A DNA stretch of 64,000 nt from a virus (lineage: Duplodnaviria; Caudoviricetes): IMG/VR virus record IMGVR_UViG_3300032233_002382, positions 224,001-288,000 of that record; one strand, given 5' to 3'. The position numbers and the translations under genes are program-made. The stretch's first letter is position 1. Every line of letters begins with the position of its first letter. The notes beneath the pieces were generated by a model. That model saw nothing but the letters and a program-made list of their open reading frames with translations. It did not search any database and was not told where the DNA came from. Positions 6,189-36,264 of the stretch are shown here, in pieces.

Positions 6189-6749
6189 CTATTTTCGCTT
6201 ACGAAGCGATTTTAAAACATCAGTAGCTGAATCGATGTCGCTTCTGACGCTACTATCAGTTTGAATGTTTATCTTGGTTTCTATACCTTTTGGAACAATG
6301 TTTGATGGTATGAAAACAGGATCTGCGACGGTCGACTGATAGGATCCGACATTGGCCGCACTTAAGTGGGCGGGCAAATTAGAAGGCGTCGGAGATGTTG
6401 GAATATTCGATAAAGCGTCAGCGAGTTTCGAAATATTACTGTTAAGGGCATCTAGCTTATTATCGATAGATTTTAACAAAGTTACCTGAGGTTCTTCTTC
6501 GACTACCGGCTCTTCCTCAGGCGGTTTTTGATACTCAACGACCTTAGAATTGGCTGTTTTGGTAAATGACTTATCGCTATTAAACAACCTCAATGATATC
6601 ATGTGTCGCACCTGCTTCGCTTGGAGCGAACTGTCATATAAATGTCTAGGTATTACCGCACTATCCCCATATTTCTCAAGCCTCACACCAATATCAGAAA
6701 GATAAATGAGCTCTTGTGATTTATTTGTAATTAAATAACTAGTCATCAT
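6189..6749 (-). CDS. Hypothetical protein (N-terminus resembles shared anchor-like domain)
   Basis: 186 aa ORF coupled to upstream gene; LITNKSQELIYLSDIG N-terminus. Confidence 0.55.
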   Translation of the reverse strand: MMTSYLITNKSQELIYLSDIGVRLEKYGDSAVIPRHLYDSSLQAKQVRHMISLRLFNSDKSFTKTANSKVVEYQKPPEEEPVVEEEPQVTLLKSIDNKLDALNSNISKLADALSNIPTSPTPSNLPAHLSAANVGSYQSTVADPVFIPSNIVPKGIETKINIQTDSSVRSDIDSATDVLKSLRKRK

Positions 6750-7450
6750 TTCTCCAGAATCCCCATTATGGCCGGAGTGAATTCTTCGGCAATAAGCTGA
6801 TTTATTTGGTCGATAAATTTTGACATTATACCTTGAAAATCCCCCTTAGGATGCTTTTGAACGAATTTTGTGTTCCTTACAGTTCTTTGGACCGAAACAC
6901 GTAATTTCTTATCCACTACTTCCATTCCTCGAGGAGCAGTCGCTTCGAGTTCATGCTCTACGTACCTCTGACCGGAGTTCTTAACATTCGAATTACGTGT
7001 GCGGTCTGATGAAATTTTCCGGGCATCTCTCGGCATTTTTAACTTATCTTGTAAGGGCTTTCTAGCGTCATACCGACCGTTGATTCTTTCAGGCCGATTA
7101 TTTCGACCTATGAAGTATGACTTCACATATCCTTTCGCTTGCGATTTCGATTGTACTAAAGACGCTTTCTTCTTATCTTTAGCTGAGGTTTCGGGTCGGT
7201 TGTACCCCCTTGGAGCTTCGTCCGTGGTTGAATCATCACTAAGGCCTTCGGCATCGATGTTTATCTCGAACATTACTGCGTCATCTGCAAGATGGGCATA
7301 AACTTGGTAATCTTTTAAGTATTCAGAGTCGGAGAAGCCAGACTCATCCAATATCTTCTTTAAAGCTAAGAGACCCTTGACCGCAATCGGCTCATAAATT
7401 GACAGCATAATATCATCAAACGATGTCGGAAGAATGAGTTCAGGCTTCAT
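6746..7450 (-). CDS. Hypothetical protein, neck cluster
   Basis: 234 aa; ATGA overlaps with both neighbours. Confidence 0.55.
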   Translation of the reverse strand: MKPELILPTSFDDIMLSIYEPIAVKGLLALKKILDESGFSDSEYLKDYQVYAHLADDAVMFEINIDAEGLSDDSTTDEAPRGYNRPETSAKDKKKASLVQSKSQAKGYVKSYFIGRNNRPERINGRYDARKPLQDKLKMPRDARKISSDRTRNSNVKNSGQRYVEHELEATAPRGMEVVDKKLRVSVQRTVRNTKFVQKHPKGDFQGIMSKFIDQINQLIAEEFTPAIMGILEK

Positions 7451-8763
7451 CTTCTATAAGTATTTTCGAATACAGGGGTTCGACCACGAATTTCCCGCTC
7501 ATCCGGAATCGCCTGGCGTTCCGTCGTCATAGGGGTTGCGCTGCCTTCACCCGGAATTATATATCGAGTCTGCGGGATGACTAAGCTCGAAGTATCCAAC
7601 ACCGGAACCTTATACCGAATATCCGATTCATCTAAGTGAGAAATAGAAAAATGTTGTTGCAATTGCATCCCACGATTCGTTGGCATACGAACTGGACCTA
7701 GTCCATATCGATCACCATTCAATTTCACAATAAAGTCTCTCTGAGATAGGAGCGGACTTGGGCCGGTCCAAGTTTCATAATTATGCGTTAGACTTCTACC
7801 ACGGTTGCTTTGAGCAATCGATCGGTCCGCATCGTCCGGAGCAATAATTAAGTCGTATGGACCATCATAACCACCGATAATGCCCGTACCAAAACAAGTT
7901 AGACAGTCTGAAGCTGGCTGCTTATTTGTAAATGAATAACAACCGCACTTTGGTCCTACATATTTACGAATAAAGCATTTTACGCGTTCACCGCTTTGAT
8001 CTAGTATGAACTTATTCCGACGAATTGCTTCCCGCCAAATCCAGTCTAACTGTTCGATAGCGTTAGAATTAGTCGTGGTCGCTTTCTTGAGTTCAGTCTC
8101 GATAAGAGCACCATTCTCGTCATAAGCAATTGTAGTCACGCGATAAAACACGCGCTGATATAAGACAGTCTTGCTAACGGCATTAAAATATCTATACGAG
8201 GCCAATACGACCGAATCTAAGTTCGGCACGACGGACGGAACCATCTTTTGACTTATCACGTCAAAAGTCGGATTTGTTTCGATCACCACTTCGCCAGTTT
8301 GAGAAACAACCGATCTCACTTTAGCTTGACGACCGTCAATAGTGACATACATATTCGCGTCAATATCATCGGAATTGATAGCAGGCTGCAAGTAAAGCGG
8401 AGTGTTAACCGTTTTAAAGATCCAACGTCCCAGAGAGTCCGTCGGACCAACAGTGAGCCAATTTTTAGATACTTCTTCCTTAAAAACAGCTTTTACCTGG
8501 GTTCGATCCCGATAGAAATTCGCCTGAATTGGCGTGGCATTTAGTTTAATATAAGGACCGAATTGGGAATCAAAACTTCGATAAACGTTCACCCCGATTA
8601 CATTAAATTTCGTGTTCGCAGATAACTCTGCCGGATTAGACCACCAAATATCTACAGTATACTTATCAAATGCAGAAGCACAAGTAACCGTCAGAGGAGA
8701 CAGAGGTCTCTCCGGGTTAATGATCTCTAACGGTGATATAGGCCTATCGGGAGGTGACGGCAT
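7447..8763 (-). CDS. Putative head-tail joining/neck protein with Cys motif
   Basis: N-terminal FN3-like segment (DIWW...GVNVYRS); C-terminal CGC...CLTCFGTG motif; located in neck cluster. Confidence 0.45.
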   Translation of the reverse strand: MPSPPDRPISPLEIINPERPLSPLTVTCASAFDKYTVDIWWSNPAELSANTKFNVIGVNVYRSFDSQFGPYIKLNATPIQANFYRDRTQVKAVFKEEVSKNWLTVGPTDSLGRWIFKTVNTPLYLQPAINSDDIDANMYVTIDGRQAKVRSVVSQTGEVVIETNPTFDVISQKMVPSVVPNLDSVVLASYRYFNAVSKTVLYQRVFYRVTTIAYDENGALIETELKKATTTNSNAIEQLDWIWREAIRRNKFILDQSGERVKCFIRKYVGPKCGCYSFTNKQPASDCLTCFGTGIIGGYDGPYDLIIAPDDADRSIAQSNRGRSLTHNYETWTGPSPLLSQRDFIVKLNGDRYGLGPVRMPTNRGMQLQQHFSISHLDESDIRYKVPVLDTSSLVIPQTRYIIPGEGSATPMTTERQAIPDEREIRGRTPVFENTYRR

Positions 8764-8792
8764 CTTATTTTAGCCGTCGCAATAAGGCCCGA

Positions 8793-9071
8793 TTACTGGG
8801 CAGTATTATCTTCTTCTTTGAACTGCACAACTACTTCGCCGTTAGGACCGACGTTCACATCCTTGACGTCGGCAGGCTTAATTTTATTGTCTGACAGAAG
8901 ATCATCTATGATCTTCTGACGAGACAGATACATCGAATCGATGGCCTCGAGCATCTTTCGGGCTTTGAGCGTCAGTACAACATGCTCAGAAGACCAGTGA
9001 CTTATAGACGCCTCGAACTGCGTCAACTGGGCGAGAGATTCTTTAGAAAGCTGAAGTTTAGCAGTGGTCAT
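8793..9071 (-). CDS. Small helical hypothetical protein
   Basis: 92 aa; leaderless-type promoter upstream. Confidence 0.55.
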   Translation of the reverse strand: MTTAKLQLSKESLAQLTQFEASISHWSSEHVVLTLKARKMLEAIDSMYLSRQKIIDDLLSDNKIKPADVKDVNVGPNGEVVVQFKEEDNTAQ

Positions 9072-25763: not shown

Positions 25764-25784
25764 GTGGAGGCCTCAAGATAGGTG

Positions 25785-32009: not shown

Positions 32010-33257
32010 TCAAACTAGAACATGCTTGTTGTTACTCTCTTCAGATGAATCACGGTTGCGCCAATATGGGGGTTGGTACCTCCATCGTCGGAAGCTACGA
32101 CCTTCACCGTAGGCCTGGCGCATCCAAAAACCCGACACAAGCGTGCGAACTCGACGGACATTTATACTTTCGCTCGAGTTTTCTTCCGGGCTCCAAAGGG
32201 TTATGGAACGCCCAAGTCTAATTCGATTTTGAGGTATCAACTTCTTAAATCGATCTTTAAGGTCATCTTTCTTTCTTCCCTTAGGCAACTTCGAAATTCG
32301 ATTCCATAAAGCCCTAGCTTCGTCATTGGCCATGAAGTGCTCGACCTCAACATCCGGCCAGGTGGAATACATAACAACATTCATCGCCCAATTAAAAAGG
32401 CCTTTCCATTCAGTTCGAAAAATATCACGAGCTTTCTGGTCGATGATGAGAGTGCTATCATCGACCACCCTTTGCTCATTCGAAAGAATGTCTGAAATCG
32501 GCGTGTTCTCAGGTAGCTCTATACTAAAGTGAAAAAGAGCATCGTCGAAGGCATTAGTACCATCATGTGCTGTTCCAACAAACAAAAATCTCCACGTTCT
32601 GACAGGCTTTGAAGGATCCTCTCCTACAGGGTCTTCCGTAAGATAAAATCCCTCAAGTTGATGCCAGCCCGTTTCTTCATTATATAGCCGAAGATTATTC
32701 GACTCAGACTTAGGGATCATCACATAGATACTGGCATAAGGCATGCGCAAATCATCGGAATTTATTCCACGCAACTCAGTATGCCGTAATCGTTCAGCCA
32801 AACCCGGCGAGACTTCGTACACTTTCTTTCCCGCGTGCTCATGAATCAGATAACACCAATTCTGAATCATTCCAGTCAGCGCTGAAGCATAGAACGCTTT
32901 TTCATCAAGATTGGGATTGTATGACTTGTAAGCAGAAAGTACCATAACATTAAACTGCTGCATCAAATCAGAATTGGCAGATAAAGAAAAACTATATGGA
33001 GTCGAAGCCGACTCCATCGACTTCGAAAGAATCTCAATAGTCAGAGCAGCCAGCTTTTGAGTGTAAGGATTAGAGTAAAATCGGTCATCCACCGCCTTCG
33101 AACGAATCGAACTACCCGAACCAGAAATAATGCTCTGAGATTTCAAGTTATGTAGATAATTCGCATAGCAAAGCAAGCCTAGTTTCTCGAAATCCTGCTT
33201 AGCTTCTGTACGCTTGCTATTAAAGAATTTGTAAGCACGTTCCCAGTGGGTTAGCAT
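32010..33257 (-). CDS. Hypothetical phage protein with basic/aromatic C-terminal motif
   Basis: 415 aa; C-terminal VSGFWMRQAYGEGRSFRRWRYQPPYW. Confidence 0.6.
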   Translation of the reverse strand: MLTHWERAYKFFNSKRTEAKQDFEKLGLLCYANYLHNLKSQSIISGSGSSIRSKAVDDRFYSNPYTQKLAALTIEILSKSMESASTPYSFSLSANSDLMQQFNVMVLSAYKSYNPNLDEKAFYASALTGMIQNWCYLIHEHAGKKVYEVSPGLAERLRHTELRGINSDDLRMPYASIYVMIPKSESNNLRLYNEETGWHQLEGFYLTEDPVGEDPSKPVRTWRFLFVGTAHDGTNAFDDALFHFSIELPENTPISDILSNEQRVVDDSTLIIDQKARDIFRTEWKGLFNWAMNVVMYSTWPDVEVEHFMANDEARALWNRISKLPKGRKKDDLKDRFKKLIPQNRIRLGRSITLWSPEENSSESINVRRVRTLVSGFWMRQAYGEGRSFRRWRYQPPYWRNRDSSEESNNKHVLV

Positions 33258-33262
33258 AGATT

Positions 33263-33268
33263 AATTTA
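33263..33268 (-). promoter_or_regulatory. Putative -10 box (TAAATT), leaderless
   Basis: gtgTAAATT-N5-ATG(33257). Confidence 0.5.
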
Positions 33269-33299
33269 CACTAAACAAGAGTCCGCAATTCAAGACGCA

Positions 33300-33815
33300 C
33301 ATACGCGTGGGCCTCGACGGATATCTCCGTCGAGGCCCACGTTGGAAGGAAGCTTGATTTCGAACTTGATTCCGTTTAGAGAATCCGTCGCACCAGTCTT
33401 ACCTACCTGCTCCACGGTCCTTATCGCAGATTACGCTGCGACCGAATCGCGTGCACCCATTCTAGTTTAACATCTCTCGACGCTAAACCAAAACCGGGAC
33501 CAAGCCGATCTAGTAACCATCGCTGGTTACCGACCGAAATGGCATGTCGCGCCACGACAGGTATCGAACCACCTTGTTTAAGGGTTTGGCTCGAGACGCC
33601 ATAAGAATCGCGACATTGCCGACAGCCAAGAGAACGACTCTCATCGTTCAAATGCGTTTCCGGCTCCGCAGTTGCCTACACTAGACCGCTCTAGTAAACG
33701 ACAACAAAGGAACGACAGTCACTAGACTCTTCCGAGTATTTCGAGACCCCTTCTTTCAAGGCATCTCTAATCGACTGGCGCATAATAGCGCGCCGATAAA
33801 AATTCTAAAAATAGT
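33300..33815 (-). ncRNA. Candidate large structured ncRNA of unknown class
   Basis: ~575-nt gap with no credible CDS; closing helix 33773-33780/33391-33398; GNRA-capped hairpins on the minus strand; T-loop-like GGTTCGATACC; 16-bp terminal hairpin 33306-33341; gtgTAATTT box at 33820-33825. Confidence 0.55.
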
Positions 33816-33833
33816 AAGTAAATTACACGTCTT

Positions 33834-34499
33834 ATGTATCGTGTAGGCATGAGTGTAGATAAGATAAGGATAGCCAACCGGATTGCTAAAGGGAAAACAT
33901 CAGAATTGGTTGGTCAGGACCCAGACGTAAATCCGGACCTTAAAAATCCAGAGTCAGTTTCTGGACATAACGATCTAATAGATATCCCCAACGTACGTCA
34001 ATATAATGATTTTACGTGCGGATCTGCATGCTTGCTGGCGATACTGGCTTATTATGGGAAATATGACGGTAGAGAAGACGACCTCGCAAGCGAATTACGA
34101 ACAAATCCGATAAACGGAACAAATGCCGATGACATAGTTAAAATCGCAAGAAAGTTCGGCCTAAACGCAGAGCGTAGAGAAAACGCGGACCTTAAAATAA
34201 TCGAATCATCACTTAGACGAAAAACGCCGATTATAGTGAACTTTCAAGCCTGGAGCGATTCTGGATCAGACTACAGGCACAGCAACGAGGATGGTCACTA
34301 CGCCATAGTAACAGGCATGGACGACGAAAACCTGTATTTTCGAGATCCATCCATGAACGGAAAGATCGGCCGATTATCAAAAGCAGATTTTATGCAAAGA
34401 TGGCATGACGAAGACGCACAATCTGACGTGGAACGGATGTGCATACTATTTCACGATAATATGATCCCTAGAATCGAAGAGATAGAGTATATAGGATAA
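33834..34499 (+). CDS. C39-family cysteine peptidase with N-terminal RIANRIA tag
   Basis: RQ...TCGSACL (catalytic Cys), GHYAIV (His), DPS (Asp); start could be ATG 33849. Confidence 0.85.
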   Translation: MYRVGMSVDKIRIANRIAKGKTSELVGQDPDVNPDLKNPESVSGHNDLIDIPNVRQYNDFTCGSACLLAILAYYGKYDGREDDLASELRTNPINGTNADDIVKIARKFGLNAERRENADLKIIESSLRRKTPIIVNFQAWSDSGSDYRHSNEDGHYAIVTGMDDENLYFRDPSMNGKIGRLSKADFMQRWHDEDAQSDVERMCILFHDNMIPRIEEIEYIG

Positions 34500-35031: not shown

Positions 35032-35247
35032 TTATTCCTCGTGAATTTTAATAGATACTGCTTGATCACACGTCAATGACGGATAAGCTCTTCTAGCATA
35101 ACCGTTCCATGAGGGAATTTCCAATATAGTTAACATATTGTGATCGGGTCTGACAGATGAGTCGACTTTGCAACCACAATTTAAGCATTTATAACGGTAT
35201 AATCCAGCAATACCGGTAGGACCCTTGAAATCCCAGTCATGGCTCAC
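35032..35247 (-). CDS. Zn-finger-like micro-protein, array member (MSHDW...CLNCG...TCDQ...IHEE)
   Basis: Shares HxW/CxxC/TC/H motif with neighbours. Confidence 0.7.
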   Translation of the reverse strand: MSHDWDFKGPTGIAGLYRYKCLNCGCKVDSSVRPDHNMLTILEIPSWNGYARRAYPSLTCDQAVSIKIHEE

Positions 35248-35519
35248 GAGTTATGAACCTTATAAGATACACATTCTTCAACAGTATGCATTGATCTAGA
35301 TTGATCATTCTCGAATTCCATAAAACACTCTGAACACATCGGGTTTATCTTGAATGCACTTCTAATCCCGGCATAGTCGATGGGATTCTTAATAGGAGAA
35401 ATCATCCTTTGAAAAAGTTCGTTAGTTTCGTCGGTCGAGAGGCCGTCACGCGATACGCGCTTCACTTGATTATCTAAGAGAGCTTTGAGAGACGCCATCT
35501 TCTTTTCCCTATCGATCAT
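35244..35519 (-). CDS. Divergent array member (CSEC...HTVEEC...VHNS)
   Basis: 91 aa; retains CxxC and C-terminal VHxx*. Confidence 0.65.
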   Translation of the reverse strand: MIDREKKMASLKALLDNQVKRVSRDGLSTDETNELFQRMISPIKNPIDYAGIRSAFKINPMCSECFMEFENDQSRSMHTVEECVSYKVHNS

Positions 35520-35727
35520 GGACCACTTCCGCTAAGAATTCTTCGCACTTTGGGATAGCTCGATACTCCATCGAACCGCTATTAAAACACGACATTATTC
35601 GACCGACAACAAACCAGTCATAATTCGGACTGGTCCAATAACCGGCCGACGTAAGATAACCACACAACTTGCATTTCACTATGACGTTTCCATGAATCTC
35701 ATGACTTAAAATCCAGTCATGCTCCAT
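35509..35727 (-). CDS. Zn-finger-like micro-protein, array member (MEHDW...CKLCG...KCEE...VHDR)
   Basis: Start reassigned to ATG 35727 by motif alignment. Confidence 0.7.
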   Translation of the reverse strand: MEHDWILSHEIHGNVIVKCKLCGYLTSAGYWTSPNYDWFVVGRIMSCFNSGSMEYRAIPKCEEFLAEVVHDR

Positions 35728-35911
35728 GGATTGTCCCCATGAGTATTTCTTCACAGGTTAGATAAGAAGAATTCTTTAAAATAGGATCCACAACTAAGAG
35801 CCAACCATCCTTAGATGGGTTATATGAACCCACAAAAATATAACCACACATGTCACATTTAAACGTTTTGAGACCACCTGATTCCTTGAGTAAAACCCAT
35901 TCATGAAGCAT
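35717..35911 (-). CDS. Zn-finger-like micro-protein, array member (MLHEW...CDMCG...TCEE...IHGA)
   Basis: Motif shared with neighbours. Confidence 0.7.
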   Translation of the reverse strand: MLHEWVLLKESGGLKTFKCDMCGYIFVGSYNPSKDGWLLVVDPILKNSSYLTCEEILMGTIHGA

Positions 35912-36095
35912 AAATATTCCAGATTATTATTTCTTCGCAGGTCATATACTTTAAATCCTGAATCATATGGCTTCCGGATAATACTTTCTGGGCAGGAAAC
36001 GGCATATTCACATCTCTAAACAAAGAACCGCACAAAAGGCATTCGAATTCTTTGTAGTACACACCCGGCGTCCTACATTTCCATTTATGAGGCAT
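35901..36095 (-). CDS. Zn-finger-like micro-protein, array member (MPHKW...CLLCG...TCEE...IYAS)
   Basis: Motif shared with neighbours. Confidence 0.7.
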   Translation of the reverse strand: MPHKWKCRTPGVYYKEFECLLCGSLFRDVNMPFPAQKVLSGSHMIQDLKYMTCEEIIIWNIYAS

Positions 36096-36264
36096 GAATA
36101 TAATTCACCATCACATCATGATAGGTCCTAACGTCCACTAATTCATTATCACGTTCAACCCAATGTGGGTTGGGCTTCTGATTAGGATCAGAAAGCCTAC
36201 ACCAACTATTACAATTTAAGCATTTCCAAATATTCGAGTAAATTAACTGCCAATCATGGGCCAT
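36085..36264 (-). CDS. Zn-finger-like micro-protein, first array member (missing from ORF track)
   Basis: Own translation: MAHDWQLIYSNIWKCLNCNSWCRLSDPNQKPNPHWVERDNELVDVRTYHDVMVNYIHAS* (59 aa). Confidence 0.7.
   Translation of the reverse strand: MAHDWQLIYSNIWKCLNCNSWCRLSDPNQKPNPHWVERDNELVDVRTYHDVMVNYIHAS

Follow-up and report, generated by a model that had tools for sequence, protein, structure and literature searches.

Phages, prophages and bacteria encode large ornate RNAs, ROOL (RF03087) and GOLLD (RF01998), which assemble into RNA-only homo-oligomers (PMC12286853). The locus analyzed here resembles them in size class (~0.5 kb, compared to roughly 0.6-0.8 kb), in being carried by a phage as a stand-alone gene, in its many hairpins and GNRA loops, in its accessory-gene surroundings and in having no known function. 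It differs from both in helix order and in the lack of a covariance-model match; in addition, it is represented by only five freshwater metagenomic contigs. The RNA is closest in kind to ROOL and GOLLD, yet unrelated to them by every test run. OLE, HEARO and raiA are further large structured bacterial RNAs in Rfam that are orphans or have only recently been assigned. The RNA resembles them in having come to light as a long stretch that is G-rich, free of ORFs and covarying; unlike these RNAs, it has no model match, and neither OLE-partner proteins nor an IscB or HNH gene adjoins it.

The window, i.e., the whole stretch of 64,000 nt that was analyzed, represents bases 224001-288000 of an IMG/VR virus record of 307,777 bp (CheckV completeness 72%). 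The virus is a jumbo phage, the minus strand of which carries nearly all genes. The RNA locus is an ORF-poor gap at window positions 33258-33833, located inside a variable accessory-gene region. On one side it adjoins a minus-strand gene for an AcrVA2-like protein of 415 aa (32010-33257), which is outside the RNA, and on the other side a C39-type peptidase gene encoded on the strand opposite to the RNA (33834-34499). We consider, with a probability of about 0.8, that this stretch is a stand-alone gene for a ~500-nt RNA of a previously uncatalogued family, which occurs in a small clade of uncultivated jumbo phages from fresh water. The proposed RNA (33298-33814, minus strand; about 480-515 nt) would start downstream of a promoter-like box and would end a few bases past a terminal hairpin. 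A stand-alone large structured RNA other than a tRNA, tmRNA, RNase P RNA or group I/II intron had been suggested by a first-pass annotation of this DNA, and this view is supported by the Rfam, ARAGORN, ORF and covariation analyses, as well as by the homolog in contig L018. Most of the elements listed in that annotation were also present, on inspection of the minus strand, at the positions it had assigned to them.

Homologs were found in four other metagenomic phage contigs (L006/L007, L009, L018 and L186), giving five contigs in total. L006/L007 (one contig from ENA and one from Logan) and L009 (from Logan) were reached through the AcrVA2-like neighbor protein, L018 by a motif scan of JGI metagenomes and L186 through the last upstream micro-gene (see below); an invariant hairpin of the RNA, h2, served as a search pattern for homologs. 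The sequences fall into three diverged lineages, represented by the window, by L009 and by L006, L018 and L186, which are close to one another. L186 is partial and holds only the first 125 nt of the RNA, leaving four full-length copies. A profile hidden Markov model and a covariance model of the 5' part (R1) recover exactly the known copies and nothing else.

Further searches did not extend the family. A blastn search of the RNA against the INPHARED phages gave no match, two motif scans of IMG/VR gave chance matches only, and one scan of GTDB genomes gave 120 chance matches, which were used as negative controls, and no relatives of the RNA. No copy was found by BLAST or R1 in the loci reached through DnaE and the AcrVA2-like protein or in five whole viral contig records of related or jumbo viruses, and the contigs of more distant AcrVA2-like proteins showed no 0.5-kb gap. 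A short-word search for look-alikes among the other genomes surveyed was negative as well. The RNA is single-copy in the phage genome; the profile model and R1 detected no second copy there and none in four other large viral records. The family is rare in current data and is carried by a small clade of uncultivated jumbo phages, for which fresh water is established as the habitat by the metatranscriptome runs with L018-type sequences (freshwater 2018 and aquatic 2017).

Comparison of the homologs revealed seven conserved blocks, namely AGAGAU...GGGGUCUC, the AGCGGU loop, GA(G/U)CCGG.AAC, GUCGGC, the GCGUAAUC loop, GGAG..GG and GCGUAU. Block spacings in the four full-length copies were 78/78/78/76, 24/25/25/25, 43/43/43/41, 187/185/185/186 and 23/24/24/23 nt. 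Anchor-to-anchor distances vary by only 0-7 nt among lineages, while the intervening sequence is often unalignable, and the same series of 11 hairpins is present in every lineage with differing stem sequences. The 5' part is made up of hairpins h1-h5, the center of the abutting hairpins H6-H9, with lengths across lineages of 71-73, 43-45, 42-45 and 37-39 nt, and the 3' part of H10 and a terminal hairpin of 14-16 bp. The RNA folds into a fixed 11-hairpin series, in which H6-H9 are framed by the invariant GUCGGC and GGAG..GG strands. GNRA or near-GNRA loops cap h3, h5, H7, H8 and the terminal hairpin in most lineages, with five or six GNRA-type loops in all. A compact tertiary fold is suggested by the many GNRA loops and by the strictly conserved lengths; it would most likely be held by tetraloop-receptor contacts. 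A role as a CsrA-type sponge was considered as well and ruled out, since GGA loop motifs are not conserved.

In the 5' part (all features on the minus strand), a conserved A/U box at 33796-33802, which reads TTTTTAT here and TTTTAAT in all homologs, precedes the first hairpin by 4-7 nt; it may serve as a -10-like element or form a single-stranded 5' leader. The 5' hairpin h1 (33777-33794) has an invariant GCGC/GCGC core. In h2 (GAGAU-CCUUGAAA-GGGGUCUC; 33743-33767), 7 of 7 pairs are invariant in the four sequences. The short hairpin h3 (33726-33737) carries a GNRA loop, GGAA here and GAAA in the homologs, and a U-A to C-G exchange in its stem. The two-tier hairpin h4 (33663-33713) has a conserved apical loop, A-GCGG-U, and 12 of its 14 pairs are changed on both sides, with pair 89-137 being U-G or A-U depending on the sequence. 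Its basal helix draws on the GAGC of the motif GA(G/U)CCGG(A/U/G)AAC (33656-33666), which occurs in all full-length copies at identical spacing. This part ends with h5 (33632-33649), which has a GAGA loop in all lineages and changes on both sides in 3 of 4 pairs.

The invariant GUCGGC strand (33618-33623), conserved at fixed spacing, marks the entry to the central domain. Next to it is H6 (33544-33616), a long irregular hairpin that measures 71-73 nt in all lineages, the outer 8-bp stem of which is AUGUCGCG/CGCGACAU in the window, ACUUCCAG/CUGGAAGU in L006 and GCAC-ACG/CGU-GUGC in L009. H6 contains an arm that had been read as enclosing a multibranch junction with a T-loop-like element. While the outer stem of this arm does recur with compensatory changes, the minimum free energy folds show a long irregular hairpin rather than a multibranch junction, and the supposed T-loop, GGTTCGATACC, serves in the window phage as the 3' strand of the distal stem of H6 and is not conserved in the homologs. 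H7 (33499-33543; 43-45 nt) has a GCGA loop, which is GCGG in the L006 group, and H8 (33456-33497; 42-45 nt) has a GAGA loop that is also GAGA in L009 and is replaced by a 6-nt loop in L006; H8 recurs in the lineages. H9 (33414-33450) presents the invariant loop GCGUAAUC, with 5 of 7 pairs changed on both sides. The exit from the central domain is a conserved GGAG-NN-GG strand (33398-33413), which includes a word with complementarity to the H9 3' strand.

In the 3' part, H10 (33368-33385), with a U-rich loop containing UAAA, is a hairpin in each lineage with a different stem. It is followed by the perfect 16-bp terminal hairpin (33306-33341), in which 12 of 12 compared pairs are kept and 6 are changed on both sides, and by a conserved GCGUAU tail (33301-33306), which is complementary to, and may pair with, the 3' strand of h1. 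The terminal hairpin had been singled out in the earlier reading, as had the GNRA-capped hairpins at 33632-33649 and 33513-33530 (within H7), the GAAAG-capped one at 33743-33767 and the TCGCAG/CTGCGA hairpin at 33424-33441 (within H9); all five are present and recur in the three lineages, the terminal hairpin with covariation and the other four with compensatory changes among them. The terminal hairpin is likely a terminator, in the window phage one without a U tract, and the transcript would end at this covarying GC-rich structure. In L018, the hairpin shows a C-G to U-A exchange relative to L006 and is followed by a U-rich tail. Terminators of the window phage seem to be hairpins rich in GC, many of which lack a U tract. 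The words GGGCCTC/GAGGCCC are ~7-fold enriched in the non-coding DNA of this genome.

Covariation was evaluated with RNAalifold on the four full-length sequences, which yielded 95 pairs, 55 of them with compensatory changes. For the 82 local pairs, 94.2% of cells were paired, as compared to 34-49% when the 3' partners were slid by 1-3 columns, an agreement that is inflated since the 82-pair structure was derived from the same alignment; the five contigs represent only three independent lineages. Fifty of these 82 pairs were changed on both sides (6-9 when slid), and the covariation score was 0.73, as compared to at most 0.19 for slid partners, with 0 of 500 shuffles reaching the observed value. 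When, as an independent check, the minimum free energy pairs of the window's RNA were projected onto the homologs through a crude structure-guided alignment, 81.8% were paired (41-49% when slid) and 65 of 145 pairs were doubly changed. Furthermore, 15 stems of at least 5 bp occupied matching positions relative to the anchors in all three lineages, as compared to 4.8 +/- 2.0 in dinucleotide shuffles. Since hairpin-by-hairpin alignment with MAFFT misaligns h4, H7, H8 and H10, which are the most diverged, the pair counts for these four hairpins are based on the full-length alignment and the structure-guided projection. Diverged homologs in which compensatory changes keep the helices, as generally looked for in structured non-coding RNAs, are present here, with the three lineages affording low formal power in R-scape.

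Pairings over longer distances behave differently as a class. Long-range stems common to the three lineages numbered 7, as compared to 4.0 +/- 2.0 in shuffles, and are not above chance. This includes the closing helix that had been proposed to enclose most of the RNA; the 8-bp complementarity (33773-33780 with 33391-33398) is present in the window, but it is unsupported across lineages, with only a 5-bp counterpart in L009 (AUCCG/CGGAU) and no clear one in the L006 group, where the 5' strand of the closing helix pairs locally instead (GCUCUUGGC/GCCAUGAGC). Possible candidate helices are the closing helix, the local CAGUC/GACUG helix (GCUCUUGGC/GCCAUGAGC in L006), GCCGG/UCGGC and a pairing of GUCGGC with the GGAG strand.

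With regard to transcription, the motif GTGTAA occurs 11 times in the non-coding DNA of this genome as compared to 4.2 expected occurrences (2.6-fold), several of them just before start codons. GTGTAA(A/T) boxes are found at 25782, 33271 and 33828 and at 8 further genome sites, and a GTGTAA box lies exactly 8 nt before the ATG of both the DnaE and the AcrVA2-like genes; this arrangement fits promoters of leaderless mRNAs. A promoter-like box of this type, GTGTAATTT, is located at 33820-33828 on the minus strand, and based on this box the start of the RNA is placed near 33814. In the window phage, the RNA is thus probably transcribed on the minus strand from a GTGTAA-type promoter. The earlier proposal that the RNA has its own promoter is plausible only for this phage, as the homologs do not have the box; their RNAs begin behind the conserved TTTTAAT.

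The surroundings of the RNA in the relatives would allow a different source of transcripts. All related contigs keep an array of zinc-ribbon-like micro-genes of 59-91 aa each (M-x-H-x-W ... CxxCG ... TCEE), found on the minus strand at 35032-36264 in the window and at L006:2515-3439, L186:1012-1946, L009:380-643 and L018:9613-9849. In four of the five contigs (L006, L009, L018 and L186), the RNA directly follows this array and starts ~12 nt past the stop codon of the last micro-gene with neither a hairpin nor a GTGTAA box in between. Co-transcription with the micro-gene operon is therefore possible, and the RNA could be viewed as a structured 3' tail of this operon, perhaps cut off, that mainly stabilizes the mRNA or is released by processing. 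We regard this explanation as unlikely. In the window, the last micro-gene is absent, and insertions of a SpoU methylase gene and the opposite-strand C39-peptidase gene keep the remaining micro-genes apart from the RNA. Even so, the RNA is conserved in full there, and it is preceded by a separate GTGTAA box. Moreover, eleven conserved hairpins with GNRA loops far exceed the needs of a 3' stabilizer, and co-transcription would in any case be compatible with a function in trans after processing.

Another explanation is a giant cis-acting leader, i.e., a riboswitch or attenuator that would control whether transcription continues past the terminal hairpin into the AcrVA2-like gene. The RNA does resemble such leaders, in that a gene follows its terminal hairpin and some of its pairings may be mutually exclusive. 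Complementarity to a word in the GGAG strand ~20 nt downstream extends over the 3' strand of H9 and the end of its invariant loop, and both words differ in concert among the lineages (AUCUGC/GCAGGU here, UCCCGA/UCGGGA in L006 and AUCUG/CAGGU in L009), suggesting from sequence that this pairing and the H9 stem may be mutually exclusive and hence act as a switch. In addition, a 7-nt element ~15 nt past the terminal hairpin complements the H6 5' strand in the three lineages carrying the AcrVA2-like gene (GCGAUUC/GAAUUGC, UCCAGAA/UUCUGGA and GAUUCUA/UGGAAUC), an equal triple being obtained in 2 of 60 shuffles; this element is missing in L018, where the downstream gene differs.

Despite these pairings, a cis-acting leader is very unlikely, as the RNA shows no constant linkage to the downstream gene. 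L018 retains the whole RNA without an AcrVA2-like gene, having a 44-codon ORF and an unrelated 398-aa gene downstream instead, and conversely L004, L005, L008 and L010 carry the AcrVA2-like gene without the RNA. Beyond the terminal hairpin of the RNA, the AcrVA2-like gene also has its own promoter-like box, GTGTAAATT, positioned 8 nt before the ATG of what looks like a leaderless gene (32010-33271 including the box). The RNA is, furthermore, much larger than riboswitch or attenuator leaders, and the long-range stems, as a class, are not above chance. Taken together, the presence of the RNA without the gene and of the gene without the RNA, the separate boxes and the covarying terminal hairpin indicate that the RNA is most likely a separate gene rather than a leader.

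The comparison with Rfam placed neither the window nor the homologs in a known class. A cmscan search of the whole window against Rfam 15 gave no match at the gathering score, and at E<=10 the region 33000-34100 gave only a 20-nt chance match. At E<=1, nothing was found inside the RNA at the homolog loci L006, L009 and L018. Covariance-model matches to GOLLD or ROOL were absent from the window even at E<=10, and no Rfam model match was obtained for RNase P RNA, group I/II introns, SRP, 6S, HEARO/omega RNA, OLE or raiA (window at E<=10, homologs at E<=1). ARAGORN found 0 tRNA or tmRNA genes in the window, and no split host gene, reverse transcriptase, IscB, TnpB or HNH gene adjoins the RNA. In view of these results, it is extremely improbable that the covariance models have missed a highly divergent representative of a known class (RNase P RNA, tmRNA, group I/II intron, GOLLD, ROOL or HEARO/omega RNA), even though the RNA is similar to these classes in size, phage origin and abundance of GNRA loops.

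The region is also devoid of a conserved ORF; open frames in 33258-33833 vary in frame and position between homologs, and similarity among homologs is restricted to the nucleotide level, across several frames and both strands. Since no reading frame is shared by the homologs, a coding function was rejected. The folding energies clearly favor one strand. For 33300-33825, the minus strand reaches -227 kcal/mol, as compared to -168 +/- 6 kcal/mol in dinucleotide shuffles (z -9.9), and the plus strand at -166 kcal/mol (z -5.4). Of the 31 gaps in the 308-kb genome that span 250 nt or more, the RNA gap has the best energy per base and the largest strand difference. The sense strands of the four full-length copies fold at -219 to -231 kcal/mol and the antisense strands at -170 to -174 kcal/mol, a difference of 45-60 kcal/mol, with 27-33 G-U pairs in the minimum free energy fold of each copy. 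The asymmetry between sense and antisense and the G-U pairs that carry it indicate an RNA rather than a DNA element. Thus, although the plus strand also folds better than its shuffles, an element acting as DNA (an origin or a site for packaging or recombination) or chance inverted repeats can hardly account for a strand asymmetry seen in all four copies, for GC/GU/AU exchanges that preserve pairing on the minus strand alone and for hairpin lengths that are kept while the stems diverge.

Sequences that may represent transcripts were found for one of the relatives. Parts of the L018-type RNA occur in two metatranscriptome runs from different studies (freshwater 2018 and aquatic 2017), where three RNA-library contigs (~150 nt, depth ~2, 90-99% identical) all fall within the RNA (L018 9156-9504) and none on the flanking genes (5 kb); these runs were found using the RNA itself as query, and the contigs carry no information on strand, ends or level and could stem from DNA carry-over. 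The divergent one among these contigs shows some disruptive differences from the RNA. The contigs represent a weak hint of RNA expression. The window's own sequence was not listed in any RNA run.

Large, intricately folded RNAs without an assigned function are, to our knowledge, rare. Orphan large RNAs have repeatedly opened new biology, including ribozymes, guide RNAs and, recently, RNA-only cages. The RNA described here adds a new family, the architecture of which is clear and testable; it comes from a so far unexplored freshwater clade of jumbo phages, and its size of ~0.5 kb makes it a practical target for chemical probing and cryo-EM. Its neighbors are a gene resembling an anti-CRISPR and a group of very small zinc-ribbon proteins. 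Most likely, the RNA would act in trans during infection, as a structural, decoy or scaffold RNA. A more specific and rather doubtful possibility is that the RNA forms the core of a phage particle or switch, either as a scaffold bound by the zinc-ribbon proteins or as an RNA-only assembly of the ROOL/GOLLD type, with a pairing switch around the GCGUAAUC loop, and would serve host take-over or anti-defense.

Several other features of these phages were observed in the course of the analysis. The AcrVA2-like protein has an arginine- and tryptophan-rich C-terminus and only 8 relatives among 5.8 billion proteins; two copies are present on one distant phage contig (L008:4001-5224 and 6412-7548). A precomputed annotation assigns it to PF26125; a search of the local Pfam copy gave no match, and its profile had no sequence match among solved structures. 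A 190-aa protein is encoded 5' of the micro-genes in L006 (1748-2320, plus strand) and L186 (248-817, plus strand) and is not found in the genome of the window. It shows sub-threshold similarity to 2H phosphoesterases/2',3'-cyclic phosphodiesterase (Pfam E 0.003-0.012; PDB 5h7e E 0.11), suggesting that the L006 protein may be an Acb1-like anti-defense enzyme.

Additional gaps were noted outside the RNA locus. In L018, the 468 nt 3' of the RNA (8471-8938) have no ORFs of at least 60 aa and a GC content of 38%; this stretch is not obviously structured, with only moderate fold z-scores of -3.5 and -4.0 on the two strands. Ten tRNA genes are located at C1:23757-65039, outside the window, each encoded by the minus strand and most of them grouped at 61.5-65 kb; they account for the other well-folding gaps in that region. 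Finally, an ORF-poor gap of 486 nt at C1:17839-18324, likewise outside the window, folds at -189 kcal/mol on its plus strand (z approximately -6.8, as compared to -3.8 for the minus strand) and could represent a second structured RNA that is not a copy of the RNA at 33298-33814.
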